This document shows positions 29,487 to 63,052 of a stretch of DNA of 64,000 nucleotides, piece after piece. Every line of letters begins with the position of its first letter. The stretch's first letter is position 1. The notes under the pieces were generated by a model, which saw nothing but the letters and a program-made list of their open reading frames with translations, searched no databases and had not been told where the DNA came from. Both the position numbers and the translations under genes were made by a program. Origin of the DNA: Escherichia coli (lineage in GTDB: Bacteria > Pseudomonadota > Gammaproteobacteria > Enterobacterales > Enterobacteriaceae); assembly GCF_001677475.2 (NCBI RefSeq), contig NZ_CP015229.1, one strand, 5' to 3'.

Positions 29487-29687
29487 ACTCTCTCCTTATA
29501 ACCAATTGTTCTTGTTTTGTTAACATTGATAACAATTCGGTCAGTCTGACAGAGGGCGTCCGCGAGTCGAAATGATTTATCTGAGGAAGAAAAGCCAAAA
29601 AAAGCATAAAAAAAGCGCAATAAGAAAACGTTTGCTATTTATTGCCACAGGTCAATTCCCTTTTGGTCCGAACTCGCACATAATACG

Positions 29688-29722
29688 CCCCCGGTTTGCA
29701 CACCGGGAATCCAGGAGAGTTC
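29688..29722 (+). promoter_or_regulatory. pyrD leader hairpin and Shine-Dalgarno
   Basis: cccgg-tttgcaca-ccggg hairpin immediately 5' of AGGAG SD and pyrD ATG; pyrimidine-dependent leader control is a recalled mechanism, not shown by the sequence. Confidence 0.5.
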
Positions 29723-30733
29723 ATGTACTACCCCTTCGTTCGTAAAGCCCTTTTCCAGCTCGATCCAGAGCGCGCTCATGAGTTTACTTTTCAGCAATTA
29801 CGCCGCATTACCGGAACACCGTTTGAAGCACTGGTGCGGCAGAAAGTGCCTGCGAAACCTGTTAACTGCATGGGCCTGACGTTTAAAAATCCGCTTGGTC
29901 TGGCAGCCGGTCTTGATAAAGACGGGGAGTGCATTGATGCGTTAGGTGCGATGGGATTTGGATCGATCGAGATCGGTACCGTCACGCCACGTCCACAGCC
30001 TGGTAATGACAAGCCGCGTCTCTTTCGTCTGGTAGATGCCGAAGGTTTGATCAACCGTATGGGCTTTAATAATCTTGGCGTTGATAACCTCGTAGAGAAC
30101 GTAAAAAAGGCCCATTATGACGGCGTCCTGGGTATTAACATCGGCAAAAATAAAGATACGCCAGTGGAGCAGGGCAAAGATGACTATCTGATTTGTATGG
30201 AAAAAATCTATGCCTATGCGGGATATATCGCTATCAATATTTCATCGCCAAATACCCCAGGATTACGCACTCTGCAATATGGTGAAGCGCTGGATGATCT
30301 CTTAACTGCGATTAAAAATAAGCAAAATGATTTGCAAGCGATGCACCATAAATATGTGCCGATCGCAGTGAAGATCGCGCCGGATCTTTCTGAAGAAGAA
30401 TTGATCCAGGTTGCCGATAGTTTAGTTCGCCATAATATTGATGGCGTTATTGCAACCAATACCACACTCGATCGTTCTCTGGTTCAGGGAATGAAAAATT
30501 GCGATCAAACCGGTGGCTTAAGTGGTCGTCCGCTTCAGTTAAAAAGCACCGAAATTATTCGCCGCTTGTCACTGGAATTAAACGGTCGCTTACCGATCAT
30601 CGGTGTTGGCGGCATCGACTCGGTTATCGCTGCGCGTGAAAAGATTGCTGCGGGTGCCTCACTGGTGCAAATTTATTCTGGTTTTATTTTTAAAGGTCCG
30701 CCGCTGATTAAAGAAATCGTTACCCATATCTAA
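29723..30733 (+). CDS. pyrD: Dihydroorotate dehydrogenase (quinone)
   Basis: ATG at 29723 ([21 protein letters not shown]), 336 aa. Confidence 0.9.
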
Positions 30734-38213: not shown

Positions 38214-39854
38214 ATGGAATCTAATAATGGGGAAGCCAAAATCCAGAAAGTGAAGAACTGGTCTCCCGTGTGGATATTTCCTATCGTCACGGCGCTCATT
38301 GGGGCCTGGGTTCTTTTTTATCATTACAGCCATCAGGGGCCGGAAGTGACCCTGATCACCGCGAATGCGGAAGGAATAGAAGGTGGTAAAACCACCATTA
38401 AAAGCCGTAGCGTTGACGTCGGCGTGGTTGAAAGCGCCACACTGGCTGATGATTTGACGCACGTTGAAATCAAAGCGCGGCTGAATTCCGGTATGGAAAA
38501 ATTGCTGCATAAAGATACCGTCTTTTGGGTGGTGAAACCGCAGATTGGTCGAGAAGGGATTAGCGGCCTGGGAACTCTGCTGTCTGGTGTTTATATCGAA
38601 CTGCAGCCAGGCGCGAAAGGCAGCAAAATGGATAAATACGATTTGCTGGACTCACCACCGTTGGCCCCGCCTGATGCGAAAGGTATCCGTGTGATTCTCG
38701 ATAGCAAAAAAGCCGGGCAGCTCTCGCCAGGAGATCCCGTGCTGTTCCGTGGCTATCGGGTAGGTTCGGTTGAAACCAGCACCTTCGATACGCAAAAACG
38801 CAATATCAGCTATCAACTGTTCATCAATGCACCTTATGACCGACTGGTGACCAGCAATGTTCGCTTCTGGAAAGATAGTGGCATTGCGGTTGATTTGACG
38901 TCAGCGGGAATGCGTGTGGAGATGGGCTCATTGACAACGCTGCTTAGTGGCGGTGTCAGCTTTGATGTGCCGGAAGGTCTGGATTTAGGGCAGCCAGTGG
39001 CACCGAAAACAGCTTTCGTTTTGTATGATGATCAGAAGAGCATTCAGGATTCGTTGTATACCGATCACATTGATTATCTGATGTTCTTTAAAGATTCGGT
39101 ACGCGGTCTGCAACCGGGAGCTCCGGTAGAATTCCGGGGTATTCGCCTGGGTACCGTAAGCAAAGTGCCATTCTTTGCGCCGAATATGCGTCAGACATTT
39201 AACGATGATTACCGTATTCCGGTACTGATTCGTATCGAGCCAGAGCGGCTGAAAATGCAGCTTGGCGAAAATGCGGATGTTGTTGAGCACCTTGGCGAAT
39301 TGTTGAAACGTGGTTTACGCGGATCGCTGAAAACCGGAAACCTGGTCACTGGCGCACTGTATGTTGATCTCGATTTCTATCCAAATACGCCTGCAATAAC
39401 CGGTATTCGTGAATTTAATGGTTATCAGATTATCCCGACCGTTAGCGGCGGTCTGGCGCAAATCCAGCAACGACTGATGGAAGCGTTAGATAAGATCAAC
39501 AAACTGCCATTGAATCCGATGATTGAACAGGCAACCAGTACGCTTTCTGAAAGTCAGCGCACAATGAAAAACCTGCAAACGACGCTGGATAGCATGAACA
39601 AGATCCTCGCCAGCCAGTCGATGCAGCAGTTACCGACGGATATGCAGTCAACGTTGCGTGAATTGAATCGCAGTATGCAGGGCTTCCAGCCTGGCTCCGC
39701 AGCCTACAACAAGATGGTGGCGGATATGCAGCGACTTGATCAGGTGTTGCGAGAACTGCAACCGGTGCTGAAAACGCTCAACGAGAAGAGTAACGCGCTG
39801 GTATTTGAAGCGAAGGACAAAAAAGATCCAGAGCCGAAGAGGGCTAAACAATGA
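38214..39854 (+). CDS. pqiB: MCE-domain lipid transport protein PqiB
   Basis: ATG at 38214 (MESNNGEAKIQKVKNWSPVW), 546 aa; track ORF begins further upstream inside pqiA. Confidence 0.85.
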   Translation: MESNNGEAKIQKVKNWSPVWIFPIVTALIGAWVLFYHYSHQGPEVTLITANAEGIEGGKTTIKSRSVDVGVVESATLADDLTHVEIKARLNSGMEKLLHKDTVFWVVKPQIGREGISGLGTLLSGVYIELQPGAKGSKMDKYDLLDSPPLAPPDAKGIRVILDSKKAGQLSPGDPVLFRGYRVGSVETSTFDTQKRNISYQLFINAPYDRLVTSNVRFWKDSGIAVDLTSAGMRVEMGSLTTLLSGGVSFDVPEGLDLGQPVAPKTAFVLYDDQKSIQDSLYTDHIDYLMFFKDSVRGLQPGAPVEFRGIRLGTVSKVPFFAPNMRQTFNDDYRIPVLIRIEPERLKMQLGENADVVEHLGELLKRGLRGSLKTGNLVTGALYVDLDFYPNTPAITGIREFNGYQIIPTVSGGLAQIQQRLMEALDKINKLPLNPMIEQATSTLSESQRTMKNLQTTLDSMNKILASQSMQQLPTDMQSTLRELNRSMQGFQPGSAAYNKMVADMQRLDQVLRELQPVLKTLNEKSNALVFEAKDKKDPEPKRAKQ

Positions 39855-40414
39855 AAAAGTGGCTAGTGACAATTGCAGCACTGTGGCTGGCCGGATGCAG
39901 CTCCGGCGAAATTAATAAAAACTATTACCAGTTACCTGTGGTGCAGAGCGGTACACAAAGTACCGCCAGCCAGGGCAATCGCCTGTTATGGGTAGAGCAG
40001 GTCGCTGTACCTGACTATCTGGCGGGGAATGGTGTGGTTTATCAAACCAGTGATGTGAAGTATGTGATTGCCAACAACAACTTGTGGGCCAGCCCGTTGG
40101 ATCAACAGTTGCGCAACACCCTGGTAGCCAACCTGAGCACGCAACTGCCCGGCTGGGTGGTTGCCTCCCAGCCTCTGGGAAGCGCCCAGGATACGCTCAA
40201 TGTTACCGTAACGGAGTTTAACGGGCGCTATGATGGCAAGGTCATTGTCAGTGGTGAGTGGTTGTTGAACCACCAGGGACAACTGATCAAACGTCCGTTC
40301 CGTCTGGAAGGGGTGCAAACTCAGGATGGTTACGATGAAATGGTTAAAGTGCTGGCCAGTGTCTGGAGTCAGGAAGCCGCTTCTATTGCGCAAGAGATAA
40401 AGCGTCTACCGTAA
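39851..40414 (+). CDS. pqiC: Lipoprotein PqiC (YmbA)
   Basis: Lipobox LAGCSS; overlaps pqiB stop (ATGA). Confidence 0.8.
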   Translation: MKKWLVTIAALWLAGCSSGEINKNYYQLPVVQSGTQSTASQGNRLLWVEQVAVPDYLAGNGVVYQTSDVKYVIANNNLWASPLDQQLRNTLVANLSTQLPGWVVASQPLGSAQDTLNVTVTEFNGRYDGKVIVSGEWLLNHQGQLIKRPFRLEGVQTQDGYDEMVKVLASVWSQEAASIAQEIKRLP

Positions 40415-40435
40415 TCATAAAGATTTGTAAATATA

Positions 40436-40472
40436 ACCGTCTCCGGTATGTTGCCTGAGGCGGTTTTTTTGT
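40436..40472 (+). terminator. Rho-independent terminator after pqiC
   Basis: accgtctc ... gaggcggt stem followed by T7. Confidence 0.7.
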
Positions 40473-40669
40473 TTCTAACTTGCGGAAAAAGTTGTTCCTC
40501 TTCACATTTTTTGTACAACCGACATGCCCGTGTAGCTCACAAATATGACAGTGGCGTGAATTTTGCGCATTGACGGCAGTTATGATTCGCGGTATTGCTT
40601 AACTGTGATTGCACATTTAGTAATCACTGTTTTCTTTTCCACCAGAAACCAGTATGAGGGAAACGAGGC

Positions 40670-40837
40670 ATGAAGAGACAAAAACGAGATCGCCTGGAAC
40701 GGGCACATCAACGTGGTTATCAGGCCGGCATCGCCGGACGCTCAAAAGAAATGTGTCCCTATCAGACGCTGAATCAAAGGTCACAATGGCTGGGAGGCTG
40801 GCGAGAAGCCATGGCGGACAGGGTAGTAATGGCCTGA
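40670..40837 (+). CDS. rmf: Ribosome modulation factor
   Basis: 55-aa ORF MKRQKRDRLERAHQRGYQAGIAGRSKEMCPYQ...RVVMA; below the 60-aa cutoff of the supplied ORF track, which instead lists a different-frame ORF at 40654-40851. Confidence 0.85.
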   Translation: MKRQKRDRLERAHQRGYQAGIAGRSKEMCPYQTLNQRSQWLGGWREAMADRVVMA

Positions 40838-40847
40838 TTCTGTCTCT

Positions 40848-40887
40848 TTAAAAAGAAACCTCCGCATTGCGGAGGTTTCGCCTTTTG
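40848..40887. terminator. Bidirectional terminator between convergent rmf and fabA
   Basis: cctccgc-att-gcggagg hairpin flanked by A and T runs. Confidence 0.75.
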
Positions 40888-40906
40888 ATACTCTGTCTGA
40901 TTATAA

Positions 40907-41425
40907 TCAGAAGGCAGACGTATCCTGGAACAGACCGACTTTCAGGTCGCTGGCGGTATAGATCAGACGACCATCAACCAACACTTCGCCATCTGCCAGA
41001 CCCATAATCAGACGACGATTAACAATGCGTTTAAAGTGAATACGGTAGGTCACTTTTTTCGCTGTCGGCAGTACCTGACCAGTGAATTTCACTTCGCCAA
41101 CGCCCAGCGCGCGGCCTTTACCTTCGCCGCCCAGCCAGCCGAGGTAGAACCCTACCAGCTGCCACATTGCATCCAGGCCCAGGCATCCCGGCATAACCGG
41201 ATCGCCAATGAAGTGGCATCCGAAGAACCACAGATCCGGATTGATATCCAGTTCTGCTTCAACATACCCTTTGTCGAAGTTACCACCCGTTTCGGTCATT
41301 TTGACCACACGGTCCATCATCAGCATGTTCGGTGCTGGCAATTGCGGGCCTTTAGCGCCAAACAGTTCACCGCGACCAGAGGCAAGAAGGTCTTCTTTTG
41401 TATAGGATTCGCGTTTATCTACCAT
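40907..41425 (-). CDS. fabA: 3-hydroxydecanoyl-ACP dehydratase/isomerase
   Basis: ATG at 41425 ([23 protein letters not shown]), 172 aa; active-site region [11 protein letters not shown]. Confidence 0.9.
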
Positions 41426-41493
41426 GTTCTCTGTAAGCCTTATTTTATTGAAGCACGCAGGATAGCTAACACGTGTACGCTGAACAAGTCCGA

Positions 41494-43254
41494 TCAGTTC
41501 GGAATAAACCAGTTCAGCCAACGTAATGGCCATGGAAAACGGTGACGTCCTTCCTGTTGCGATGCTTGCGCGATACGTTCCTGGATGGTTTGCATCAGCG
41601 TCGTTTGGCCTTCGCCATCCCACACCAGATTTAATAATAACGGCAGTGCGTCAGTCACATCGTCTACTGCCCAGATGGTGAATTTGCCTTCTTCTACCGC
41701 TTTCACCAGTTCACTGTGAAGACTTAAATGGCGAACGTTAGCTGTGGGGATAATGACACCTTGTTTCCCGGTTAACTCACGTTGCTGGCAAATAGCAAAG
41801 AAGCCTTCGATTTTCTCATTTAAACCACCGACCGGCTGGGCGCGACCGAACTGATCGACTGAACCTGTGATAGCGATACTCTGATTCACCGGCACATCGG
41901 CGAGGGCGCTTATCAGGGCGCAGAGTTCAGCCATCGAGGCACTATCGCCATCCACTTCACTGTATGACTGCTCAAATGTCAGCGATGCTGAGAAGGGGAT
42001 CTGTTGCTCAAGCTGTAGTTCCGACATCAGGAACGCCTGCATGATCATCATCCCTTTCGCATGGATATTGCCGCCAAGCTCCGCTTTGCGTTCGATGTCG
42101 GTGAATTCACCATCGCCAATATGCACAACGCAGCTAATGCGAGAAGGTTCGCCAAAAGCGCGTGGATGACCCGGAAATTCAATGACCGAAAGGGCGTTAA
42201 TTTGCCCGATGCGTTCGCCTTCGGTTTCAATCAGGATTTGCTCCTGAAGGATCTCATCCTGCATGCGTTCAGCGAGGAAACCTTCACGCCATTCACGCTG
42301 CTGCAGCATTAAGTTTAGCTGCTCGCCGGAGAAGGTGTCGCCATCGCACAGGGAGGCGACCTCTTTACACTGGCGGAGGATCCACTGCGGGCTAAGCGGA
42401 AGTGTTTCTTGTTCACCGGTGTAGCGGGCTGCTTCGCGGATAAGTACCGGCCAGGCATCCGCTCCCGGTGCAGGTAAGTGATTATGTCTTGCGGTCAATG
42501 TTACCCAGCGACACCACTGACTTACTGACTCCGCATCGACAATCTGCAGAGTATCTTCAAATTCGCTATAAATAGCCTGCTCTGAAAGCTCTGGTTCCAT
42601 CTCCTGGAAATCAGCCAATGATTCGCGTTCGCCTACCAGAATGACTTTCAGCTTCAATGGCATCGAAGGCACAGAGACGGGGAGAGGGCGCGACTCATCA
42701 AACGCAACCCAGTCAAAACGCTCGCGGTTAACGATATTTTTCAGCCGCATCCACAGCAGAGGTTGCGCCAGCAGTGTACGCAAAGAGATGATGAGAATAC
42801 CGCCATTTGCCTGATGCACCAGACCTGGCTGCAGGGTAATGTCGCCATTAAACTGGCGCAGGCAGCCAAAGAGTTGTTCCGCTTCTACCCAGTCGGCAGC
42901 GACAACTTGCGTTAAAGTCGCAAAATTATCATCTGCACTCACTGCGTTACGTAAGCGGATGGTGTGCCCGGAAACCTCATAGTGACCGCCCACCAGTTGG
43001 CCTGCATCGCTTTGTAGCGCACGCGCGGCATCGGCAATAAGATTCAGATACTCAGACTCTTCCGGGGCCTTCGCCAGCATAAAAGAGGAGGATGCTCGCG
43101 TATGCAGCAGCTGCTCCAGCGCAAATTGCAGCCGCGGTTGAGTATCACTGAATAAAGGATCGTTTTCGTCAATCAAATGTGGCTGAGCAAATATTTCCTG
43201 ATAGCTATCGGTATCAGGAACCAGGTCACGCCATGCAAGTTTCGTAATGGTCAA
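41494..43254 (-). CDS. ycbZ: Lon-like protease homolog YcbZ (no AAA+ module)
   Basis: 586 aa; Lon S16 proteolytic-domain-like motif DGDSAS near C-terminus. Confidence 0.8.
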
Positions 43255-56591: not shown

Positions 56592-56651
56592 TGGCGGAAG
56601 CGCAGAGATTCGAACTCTGGAACCCTTTCGGGTCGCCGGTTTTCAAGACCG
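56592..56651 (-). tRNA. serT: Truncated tRNA-Ser(UGA): 3'-terminal 60 nt only (anticodon loop to CCA); attL copy at prophage junction
   Basis: Minus strand reads CGGTCTTGAAAACCGGCGACCCGAAAGGGTTCCAGAGTTCGAATCTCTGCGCTTCCGCCA; the 5' 28 nt of the recalled serT sequence are replaced by AT-rich prophage DNA. Confidence 0.8.
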
Positions 56652-56792
56652 AAGAAAAATAAAGAAAAATCAGTATAATACGCAAAATAGCCGAAAAGTT
56701 AATCAGACTTAACACCAAGAAAAATCAAGATGTTAGGGAGTTATTCAGAGTTAATATACCAGGTCTTTTTGCCAGAAAATTTTCTGGATTGT

Positions 56793-57812
56793 CTACTTAC
56801 TGACCACAAGCGGCAAATCCAGTGTTGGCGTGATTTTGGTTTTACGATCGTAAATCAACACCTGATTTTCTGTTTTGTGTCCACTGAAAATTTGTTTGTC
56901 GCGACTGCTGCCTTCGTAATCTGAAATCCCTTTGGCTTTTATGTCATGGAAGTTGCACCCAAACGGAACGCCGGCTTTTTGCTCGGCTGCACGTTTAGCC
57001 TGATTCCACCAGTTGTTCAGCGTCTTGGCTATTACCTTCCCGCCTTTGGTTGTGTTGATCACATACTCGCATGTGCCGGAAGATACATTTCGGGCTAACT
57101 GGATCGCCGTACGTAATCGCGGAGACCATTCCTTGATTTGTTTAGTGCCAGTCTTGTTTTGCTCAATGTAAATCCCTTTATCCATAATATCCTGCCATTT
57201 CAGCTCGAGTACATCACCGAGCCTTGCCGCACAAAGATAGGATATCTCCATTGCAATACGTAACTGTGGAATTGCTTCCGCATATATTGCTGCATACTGT
57301 TCATCGGTGATGTAAACAGTACGGGCTTTAAGTGTGAATTTTCTGACACCTTTGCATGGATTATTTTTCACATACCCACGCTCATATCCCCATCCGTATA
57401 CACGGCTCAGACTTGCCAGTTCATGGTTTGCCTGGGTCTTGCTCTCAAGTCCTCGCTTATCCATGAAAATTCTTACCTGTTCAATTTTTACATTATCAGC
57501 AAGCACTTTTCCGAATACTGCCAACAATGCCCTTTGATGTTGCCGATAATCTTTTTGGGTTCGGGGGGCCAGTTCTGTAAATGCAGGGGAGTCCATAAAC
57601 ATGTGCCATAATTTAGCTACTGTCATTATGTTGTGGAGTTTTGCTTTTTCCAGCTCATAATTTTGCCAGACTTTAGCTACGCTGGTTTCCCGCACTCTTC
57701 CGAGCCCTATAGTTCTTGTGCTTCCTTCGGGTTTCCATACGTAACTGTAACCGTTCGATCTAACACGCGGTGGTAGTGCATTATCTTTTTTGTTTTTTCT
57801 TGGTCTTCCCAT
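56793..57812 (-). CDS. int: Tyrosine-type site-specific integrase (lambda Int family)
   Basis: 339 aa; C-terminal catalytic region GHKTENQVLIYDRK resembles lambda Int LLGHKSDTMASQY; 3' end faces the att site. Confidence 0.9.
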   Translation of the reverse strand: MGRPRKNKKDNALPPRVRSNGYSYVWKPEGSTRTIGLGRVRETSVAKVWQNYELEKAKLHNIMTVAKLWHMFMDSPAFTELAPRTQKDYRQHQRALLAVFGKVLADNVKIEQVRIFMDKRGLESKTQANHELASLSRVYGWGYERGYVKNNPCKGVRKFTLKARTVYITDEQYAAIYAEAIPQLRIAMEISYLCAARLGDVLELKWQDIMDKGIYIEQNKTGTKQIKEWSPRLRTAIQLARNVSSGTCEYVINTTKGGKVIAKTLNNWWNQAKRAAEQKAGVPFGCNFHDIKAKGISDYEGSSRDKQIFSGHKTENQVLIYDRKTKITPTLDLPLVVSK

Positions 57813-61186: not shown

Positions 61187-61573
61187 CTTTAAAAAGGGCG
61201 GACATCAGCCAGCAATGAAAACTGATGCCGCCAAAGGTACCAATCAACATGGAGTGTTGCGGCGGGGTTGTCACTCAGGCGTATGGTCAACCTGACAACC
61301 CGGTGTCACCAGTGGGGGTAAGGAAAACCCCGCCATACTTACCGCCGCGCCATTTCGCGGAGTGCCACAACCGGAAGCGCACGGTCGACGAAAATTTAAC
61401 GACAGGCTATCTATGAACCATAAACCTCGCCGTGCGCTTTCGCGTTATGCCCTGACTTTTCAGGGAAATATCCTTTCAGTAAACTGTCAGTGCCGGATGT
61501 TCACCCGTGTCCGGCGCACGCACTCCACCTCACCCGTGGAGAACCCCTTAATTACCAACCCTCAGGAGAGTGA

Positions 61574-62716: not shown

Positions 62717-63030
62717 AAGCGCATGCCGTTTAGTTACCGCTCTGATCATTCTTACTTGTCCGGTAATGGCGCTGACATCAGTATAAAGCGCCATTGCTGC
62801 TTCTTTGCCGATCCCAGGATGCCTTCCATTCTGATGTTTGACTTCGCCCACTGAGAAATCCTCTGTTTCCCCTTAACGCCGGGGTAGCGGAACAAAAACC
62901 TGCTGCATAGTTAAAGTTGAACCCTGCCGTCATGTTCTTACGCCTCGGGCTGGCTACTTAACCCCTGACCACTGCCTGGTAACTCGAAGTATTGCCCTGC
63001 GTTTTGTGGGGCGGGGTGGGTTAGTAAAAA

Positions 63031-63052
63031 TAGTTTATACAAAAATAAACTA
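63031..63052. repeat. 22-bp palindrome TAGTTTATACAAAAATAAACTA (candidate operator or structural site)
   Basis: Perfect 8-bp arms around a 6-bp AT core, in the 400-bp non-coding gap between the zinc-ribbon gene and the ParE-like gene. Confidence 0.5.

Follow-up and report, generated by a model that had tools for sequence, protein, structure and literature searches.

The 55-aa rmf gene of an Escherichia coli chromosome and the 65-aa wrong-frame ORF listed in its place

rmf in its pqiC-fabA setting

Ribosome modulation factor (RMF) is a basic protein of 55 residues. It binds 30S near the anti-Shine-Dalgarno region and, together with HPF, makes 70S ribosomes dimerize in stationary phase to inactive 100S particles (PMC8778775, PMC10746276). 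The closest described system for the locus reported here is rmf of E. coli K-12 (b0953, NP_415473.1), an identical gene for which stationary-phase, ppGpp-dependent expression and the formation of 100S ribosomes have been described (PMC8778775, PMC6134199). Transcription proceeds from a single RpoD promoter and starts 58 nt upstream of the initiation codon, the rest of the upstream spacer being regulator-binding DNA (PMC6134199). Work on the polyamine modulon examined two Shine-Dalgarno sequences, SD1 at 11 nt and SD2 at 2 nt upstream of the AUG, both of which were tested by mutation (PMC7177335). Throughout this paper the transcription start, the function of SD1 and SD2, the stability of the mRNA and the function of RMF are taken from the literature.

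How closely does the locus in our window, by which we mean the whole analysed stretch of 64,000 nucleotides of E. coli DNA, resemble this system? The ORF at 40670-40837 on the plus strand, seen in an ORF listing that went down to 20 aa, starts with ATG, encodes 55 aa and begins MKRQKRDRLERAHQRGYQAGIAGRSKEMCPYQTLNQRSQWLGGWREAMADRVVMA / MKRQKRDRLERAHQRGYQAG. Its product shares 55/55 residues (100%) with the PDB chains 6h4n_v and 4v8g_AV, named "Ribosome modulation factor", and is likewise identical at 55/55 positions to the E. coli RMF chains in the ribosome structures 6h58 and 9iot and to K-12 Rmf. It matched Pfam family PF04957 (E 1.7e-22; 79.6 bits, gathering score 27.9) and the NCBIfam equivalog model for RMF, NF011162 (92.1 bits, cutoff 40), and a 417-member cluster named ribosome modulation factor includes the exact 55-aa protein. 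The 701-bp stretch running from pqiC through rmf to fabA was matched in 5425 of 5426 complete E. coli genomes, and all three genes were annotated at the matching stretch in all the E. coli records examined. Family models, identity to the 30S-bound E. coli protein, size and context, and purifying selection all place this ORF with RMF. The first-pass annotation had recognized it as rmf from its letters and had named alignment to Rmf as the check; that alignment, the two family models and the pqiC/fabA synteny uphold the assignment. Identity and synteny are direct observations, and we put at about 0.97 the probability that 40670-40837 (+) is rmf and that the 65-aa ORF overlapping it, considered below, is a non-conserved wrong-frame artefact. 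rmf as found here is a textbook gene, already known, and we claim nothing biologically new about it.

The likeness to K-12 goes beyond the protein. The 5' UTR, the CDS and the 3' UTR with the terminator, 295 nt together, are identical to the window, and so are the neighbors (pqiC upstream, convergent fabA downstream), the two Shine-Dalgarno sequences and the terminator. There is no difference within rmf itself, although the flanking pqiC and fabA genes carry a few substitutions relative to K-12, and the nearest complete E. coli genome is 98.6-99.0% identical to the surrounding window. As regards relatives of the family, the window protein also matches the Rmf/CrpP subfamily model NF041886 (Rmf_CrpP_fam; 51 bits, cutoff 28) but falls below the cutoffs of the phage-type model NF041887 (Rmf_like_phage; 24 vs 40) and of the CrpP model NF033696 (20 vs 55). 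A PHROG of unknown function gave a weak match to it; the gene sits in the chromosomal pqiC-fabA context and not in a mobile element. The features of the locus are listed here in order of position.

39851..40414, plus strand: pqiC, upstream neighbor of rmf (187-aa ORF; annotation of matching E. coli records)
40415..40611, plus strand: upstream part of the pqiC-rmf spacer, with the terminator-like hairpin of pqiC and the rmf promoter/regulator-binding region (GC 36-44%)
40450-40464, plus strand: terminator-like hairpin of pqiC with its T-run (terminator scan)
40612..40669, plus strand: 5' untranslated leader of rmf, its length of about 58 nt set by the published transcription start (GC 41.4%)
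40656..40660, plus strand: SD1 (GAGGG), the distal Shine-Dalgarno sequence of rmf (sequence; PMC7177335)
40665..40668, plus strand: SD2 (GAGG), the proximal Shine-Dalgarno-like sequence (sequence; PMC7177335)
40670..40837, plus strand: rmf CDS, ribosome modulation factor, 55 aa plus TGA stop (PDB identity, Pfam, NCBIfam, E. coli annotation)
40855..40879, both strands: predicted bidirectional intrinsic terminator hairpin of the convergent rmf and fabA genes (11-bp stem, 3-nt loop, flagged on both strands)
40907..41425, minus strand: fabA, convergent downstream neighbor of rmf (annotation of matching E. coli records)

The spacer between pqiC and rmf (40415-40669) measures 255 bp and has a GC content of 41.2%; the window overall has 50.9%, and by GC the spacer ranks in the lowest 4.5% of 255-bp windows. 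The first-pass annotation had described a long AT-rich leader in front of rmf. That the region is long and moderately AT-rich is correct, but the published leader is only 58 nt (PMC6134199), and with a start site at this distance from the ATG most of the spacer must therefore be pqiC terminator and promoter/regulator DNA, not leader. A scan of 40300-41600 for the sigma-70 consensus found no promoter-like site, and consequently the position of the rmf promoter is that of the literature and was not derived from the sequence; the empty scan fits a promoter that is weak and dependent on activators and ppGpp. A terminator-like inverted repeat at 40605-40627 straddles the published start, leaving only its 3' half in the RNA, and was not taken as an RNA hairpin.

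The leader is 100% identical to the window in E. albertii and 78-91% identical in the 13 other genera compared, and the block ATGAGGGAAACGAGGCATG is near-invariant across 65 orthologs. An Rfam scan of 39500-42000 (E <= 1) returned no hit above gathering score, the Pseudomonas-type rmf RNA motif being unmatched. Three leader-like Rfam hits fell on the terminator hairpin with 21-25 bits, where the gathering scores are 50-55, and were set aside as generic hairpin matches.

Putting these elements together, we picture rmf as a single-gene transcription unit that would be expressed from a weak, regulator-dependent promoter with its start about 58 nt upstream of the ATG, and that would be translated by way of an unusually placed pair of Shine-Dalgarno sequences. 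Its transcription would end at a hairpin that would stop the transcript of convergent fabA as well. This hairpin begins 17 nt past the rmf stop and 27 nt past that of fabA, has 7 G-C pairs in its stem of 11, and folds with -20.2 kcal/mol on the plus strand (z -4.6) and -23.7 kcal/mol on the minus strand (z -5.0). When 65 orthologous transcripts were aligned, 8 of the 11 stem pairs were seen to change on both sides in a compensatory manner and 91.8% of cells were paired, versus only 43-54% in a control in which the 3' partners were slid. A terminator common to rmf and fabA had been proposed at the outset, and the hairpin on both strands, its folding z-scores and the compensatory pairs agree with that proposal; we regard the role of the predicted hairpin at 40855-40879 as a shared bidirectional terminator as well supported. 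Its two tails are TTTTT (TTTTTAAAGA) on the fabA side, on the minus strand, and GCCTTTT (GCCTTTTGAT) on the rmf side, on the plus strand. Termination in the rmf direction may be the less efficient of the two, given that on this side GCC intervenes between the stem and a short T-run.

The 65-aa ORF in the +2 frame

Why, then, was so well known a gene missing from the ORF list of this stretch? Under the default setting, which discards ORFs below 60 aa, the sole ORF overlapping the gap between pqiC and fabA (40415-40906) is the following.

40654..40851, plus strand: 65-aa ORF with an ATG start, offset +2 relative to rmf, judged to be a non-coding wrong frame

The rmf ORF shows up only when the cutoff is lowered below this default, and the 65-aa ORF is listed in its place because 60 aa exceeds the 55 aa of Rmf. 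ORF lists made at both cutoffs mechanically reproduce the masking that the first-pass annotation had reported. The lesson for method is that a fixed 60-aa cutoff applied to six frames conceals a well-characterized gene of 55 aa behind a longer ORF in the wrong frame.

Has the same error ever been made outside of our window? The GenBank entry ACT70914.1 (E. coli O157:H7 str. TW14359), labelled 'ribosome modulation factor', is the exact 65-aa wrong-frame product of 40654-40848. So are EFJ93212.1 and EFU50567.1, both HMP E. coli entries called 'hypothetical protein', while EGB79092.1, a further HMP E. coli 'hypothetical protein' of 65 aa, clusters with them at 90% identity. This cluster of alternate-frame proteins has 4 members only, and the three named ones are from E. 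coli. Such entries are database annotation and not protein evidence, and current PGAP/RefSeq calls the 55-aa frame. Since the wrong-frame product has been deposited in GenBank, the masking error has occurred in practice, and rmf mislabelling, that is, the wrong frame under the name of RMF, has entered GenBank at least once.

A different possibility is that the 65-aa ORF is a genuine second gene which overlaps rmf out of frame, with both products being made. The presence of its product in a few GenBank records might be cited in favor of this, although those entries are automatic calls, one of them merely mislabelled RMF. The evidence that bears on the question most directly comes from orthologs. 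A single degenerate DNA pattern for the motif GYQAG..GRS...CPY retrieved 120 rmf loci from reference genomes of the Enterobacterales, Vibrionaceae, Alteromonadales and Aeromonadales, all but two of which gave a complete Rmf of 51-60 aa; of the 64 orthologs compared, 51 had fabA within the locus retrieved. Among 114 unique ortholog CDS, the +2 frame has stops inside rmf in 76 and is stop-free in 38. An open frame is seen in Escherichia, Salmonella diarizonae and certain further genera, but Citrobacter (C. youngae), Enterobacter asburiae and E. quasihormaechei, Kluyvera and Leclercia all have in-frame stops with Rmf intact.

The ATG at -16 is conserved widely: of 64 orthologs whose Rmf has 55 aa, 57 retain it, and it is exactly at this ATG that sequence conservation starts. 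Both facts would suit a second gene, yet the ORF that follows from this ATG varies in length from 11 to 116 aa. The protein it would encode also changes more than Rmf does: the same substitutions in S. diarizonae cause 8 changes in the alternate frame and 3 in Rmf, and K. oxytoca keeps 50/55 residues of Rmf versus 44/65 of the alternate product. Differences of the orthologs from the window are distributed over rmf codon positions 1/2/3 as 424/317/1209, an excess at third positions that reflects purifying selection on the rmf frame. Pfam, NCBIfam and PHROG searches with the 65-aa ORF gave no match, and ACCAGAAACCAGT, the stretch preceding 40654, has neither GGAG nor GAGG nor AGGA, that is, no Shine-Dalgarno-like sequence from which the ORF could be served.

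There remains the frequency of the open frame. When Rmf is recoded at random with synonymous codons, the +2 frame stays stop-free in 10-14% of trials, and an open +2 frame is not remarkable by chance; 38 of 114 is, however, more than independent recoding leads one to expect. This excess is weakened as evidence because the orthologs are related to one another and because the nucleotide-level constraint on rmf freezes the ancestral state. The stops found in orthologs already largely refute a second gene. That the alternate frame is not conserved is a direct observation: its start, stop and openness taken together, and its protein sequence, fail to show the preservation one would look for in an overlapping gene, nor does it have a ribosome-binding site of its own. 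The literature searched for initiation-site or small-protein profiling that mentions rmf yielded nothing about this frame. We infer that translation of the alternate frame yields no functional product, and consider a second gene here to be extremely improbable. With no family match, with stops and variable length in orthologs, and with faster divergence than Rmf, the ORF deserves the epithet "spurious" that it was given on first reading. A 55-aa ORF on the opposite strand (40617-40784, minus) was rejected as well, since no family model matched it and only 25 of 113 orthologs leave its frame free of stops.

Could the ATG at 40654 be used all the same, as the start of a regulatory upstream ORF that overlaps rmf and modulates RMF synthesis, the peptide itself being irrelevant? 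The wide retention of the ATG is compatible with such a use, as is its place at the 5' edge of the near-invariant block, just upstream of which the bases vary. Every ortholog with the -16 ATG ends the frame downstream of the rmf ATG, even the shortest at 11 aa, as the mechanism needs, and the bases upstream of the ATG are A-rich in many species. Against this, the ATG (40654-40656) overlaps SD1 (40656-40660), its G being the first base of that sequence, and SD1, SD2 and the start region explain the block (PMC7177335). No Shine-Dalgarno sequence serves the ATG at 40654, seven orthologs that are without it keep rmf, and the literature we searched reports no such initiation. Moreover, CsrA experiments with leader fusions showed no post-transcriptional effect via the leader (PMC10746276). 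An upstream ORF of this kind therefore seems to us very unlikely. The 65-aa ORF is, in our view, simply the +2 frame of the same DNA, stop-free by chance in Escherichia and opened by an ATG that overlaps SD1.

Conservation of the rmf transcript at the nucleotide level

A side observation made during the ortholog comparison is that the rmf transcript is conserved well beyond the needs of its protein. Four-fold degenerate sites had changed at 0/26 positions of rmf versus 27/90 of fabA in E. albertii, at 1/24 versus 33/92 in Citrobacter youngae and at 4/24 versus 44/89 in Salmonella diarizonae (pairwise comparisons, Fisher p 0.0005-0.005). For E. albertii the leader and CDS of rmf are identical to the window over 226/226 nt, while identity in the flanks is 84% for the 3' end of pqiC, 92% for fabA and 80% for the 3' UTR.

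A synonymous divergence so strongly below that of fabA in close genera is something that an overlapping gene could in principle cause. The distribution of the constraint along the gene argues otherwise. In 64 unique 55-aa orthologs, synonymous sites are near-frozen in codons 2-5 (AAG in 63/64, the rare Arg codon AGA in 64/64) and in codons 42-51 (the rare Arg codon CGA in 55/64, GCC in 63/64, the rare Arg codon AGG in 59/62), but they vary freely in codons 9-41, where they are the first codon positions of the alternate frame. Constraint that is local in this way, and not spread along the ORF, argues against the 65-aa ORF as its cause because an overlapping ORF would act along its whole length.

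What else might hold these segments constant? One candidate is a helix between the two ends of the mRNA, the 3' partner of which is the following.

40841..40850, plus strand: 3'-UTR motif TGTCTCTTTA, which may form a 5'-3' end helix with the start region TGAAGAGACA (40671-40680) through 10 nt of perfect complementarity

The TGTCTCTTTA and TGAAGAGACA segments pair in the whole-mRNA MFE fold, and GTCTCTTTA is unchanged in nearly all of the first 32 alignment rows (Enterobacteriaceae-like), its flanking bases being variable. For 24 Enterobacteriaceae the predicted energy of the duplex is mostly -12 to -13 kcal/mol, and as low as -19.2 kcal/mol where it is longer (p <= 0.023 vs shuffles). On the alignment of 65 orthologs the helix shows no compensatory change, and it fails outside of the Enterobacteriaceae. 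RNAalifold gave only a weak consensus for the 65 full-length mRNAs (-9.55 kcal/mol, with a covariation term of -0.66), and a conserved global fold of the rmf mRNA cannot be claimed. The end helix is put forward here purely as a hypothetical structure.

Published properties of this mRNA are of interest in the same connection. Its half-life is about 24 min, whereas typical mRNAs have half-lives of 2-4 min (Aiso et al. 2005, cited in PMC8778775), it is polyadenylated (PMC5389530), and it is a top ligand of the RNA-binding protein YhgF (PMC10201417). It is conceivable that the rmf transcript is under unusually strong RNA-level selection, with an end helix or a bound factor underlying the stability of the mRNA and masking the start codon until stationary phase. 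We hold this to be doubtful, although it is far from negligible, and if it were so, then the open +2 frame and the conserved ATG could be by-products of that selection or part of the same control element. The hyper-conservation of the mRNA offers, in any case, a modest lead for the study of mRNA stability and translational control of hibernation factors.

Other small genes in the window

The masking of rmf had led the first-pass annotation to warn that other small genes might be missing from the ORF track, especially in the prophage. The warning is sound in principle, but it is only weakly borne out and of little consequence for this window. In the chromosomal part, rmf is the sole annotated CDS of less than 60 aa in the K-12 annotation and the PGAP annotations of the closest genomes, and ycaR is exactly 60 aa long. 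In the prophage part, which extends from about 56653, the gaps between longer ORFs contain six ORFs of 25-59 aa. Only two of these have PHROG matches, which are given below.

61287-61382, minus strand: short prophage ORF matching phrog_8854, of unknown function (E 4.8e-15, partial profile coverage)
62938-63042, minus strand: short prophage ORF matching phrog_19140, of unknown function (E 1.3e-17, partial profile coverage)

Conservation of the rmf transcript

Judged from sequence comparison with E. albertii, Citrobacter youngae and Salmonella diarizonae, the mRNA of rmf, the gene for the 55-aa ribosome modulation factor, is hyper-conserved at the nucleotide level over 40612-40851. The features concerned are the following.

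40612-40669: rmf leader, ~58 nt
40670-40837 (+): rmf coding sequence
40654-40851 (+): 65-aa wrong-frame ORF, offset +2 to rmf and judged non-coding

The E. albertii sequence is identical to that of the window at 226/226 positions across the rmf leader and coding sequence, and the four-fold sites that differ between them number 0/26 in rmf and 27/90 in the neighbouring fabA. The corresponding counts are 1/24 and 33/92 for C. youngae, and 4/24 and 44/89 for S. diarizonae. Within rmf, codons 9-41 vary freely at their synonymous sites, but codons 2-5 and 42-51, which include the rare Arg codons AGA, CGA and AGG, are frozen there.

One candidate structure within this mRNA is a pairing of the start-codon region, TGAAGAGACA (40671-40680), with a perfectly complementary motif in the 3' UTR, TGTCTCTTTA (40841-40850). 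The minimum free energy fold pairs the two segments in a duplex of roughly -13 kcal/mol, and GTCTCTTTA is unchanged, despite variable flanks, in nearly all Enterobacteriaceae-like rows (the first 32 of the 65 orthologous transcripts aligned). The ortholog alignment contained no covariation supporting the helix, which is missing from the orthologs compared outside the Enterobacteriaceae.

At the 5' end of the transcript, an inverted repeat, GTGATTGCACATTTAGTAATCAC (40605-40627), is followed by a T-rich run and had been flagged as terminator-like. The published start of rmf transcription, ~40612 (PMC6134199), falls inside this repeat, which is therefore more likely to be a protein-binding site acting at the DNA level than an RNA hairpin.

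The wrong-frame product in protein databases

The 65-aa wrong-frame product has itself been deposited at NCBI, and its protein cluster includes these entries.

ACT70914.1: E. coli O157:H7 TW14359, labelled 'ribosome modulation factor'
EFJ93212.1 and EFU50567.1: same sequence as ACT70914.1
EGB79092.1: same cluster, hypothetical protein, HMP E. coli genomes

The wrong-frame entry at NCBI is a genuine mis-annotation of rmf.

Genomic setting and the prophage

K-12 carries the elfADCG-ycbUVF fimbrial operon between ssuE and pyrD, whereas the window, like E. coli strain MEW, is without it and has at this place (~29487-29722) only a short spacer bearing the PyrD leader (29655-29728; Rfam RF02373, 97.9 bits). 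Among the 5,426 complete genomes of E. coli compared, the nearest is only 98.6-99.0% identical to the window over 25-kb segments, and in the prophage end (from ~57 kb) the best matches are 87-95% identical. This low identity means, therefore, that the Escherichia/Shigella lineage of the window is unrepresented among those genomes.

ARAGORN detected no tRNA in the whole window. Beside yccA, serT (tRNA-Ser) is present as its 3' 59 nt alone, the fragment ending in prophage DNA just ahead of an integrase gene.

56594-56652 (-): serT fragment
56793-57812 (-): integrase gene
61287-61382 (-): 31-aa prophage ORF, phrog_8854 match, E 4.8e-15
62938-63042 (-): 34-aa prophage ORF, phrog_19140 match, E 1.3e-17

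The prophage is integrated in serT, and the break in this gene is its left junction; an intact copy of the tRNA, if any, would lie at the prophage's far end, beyond the window. Both short ORFs fall under the 60-aa cutoff, the default minimum of the ORF list, and match PHROG families of unknown function. Each spans only part of its PHROG profile, which may reflect truncation of the gene or a wrongly placed ORF start.
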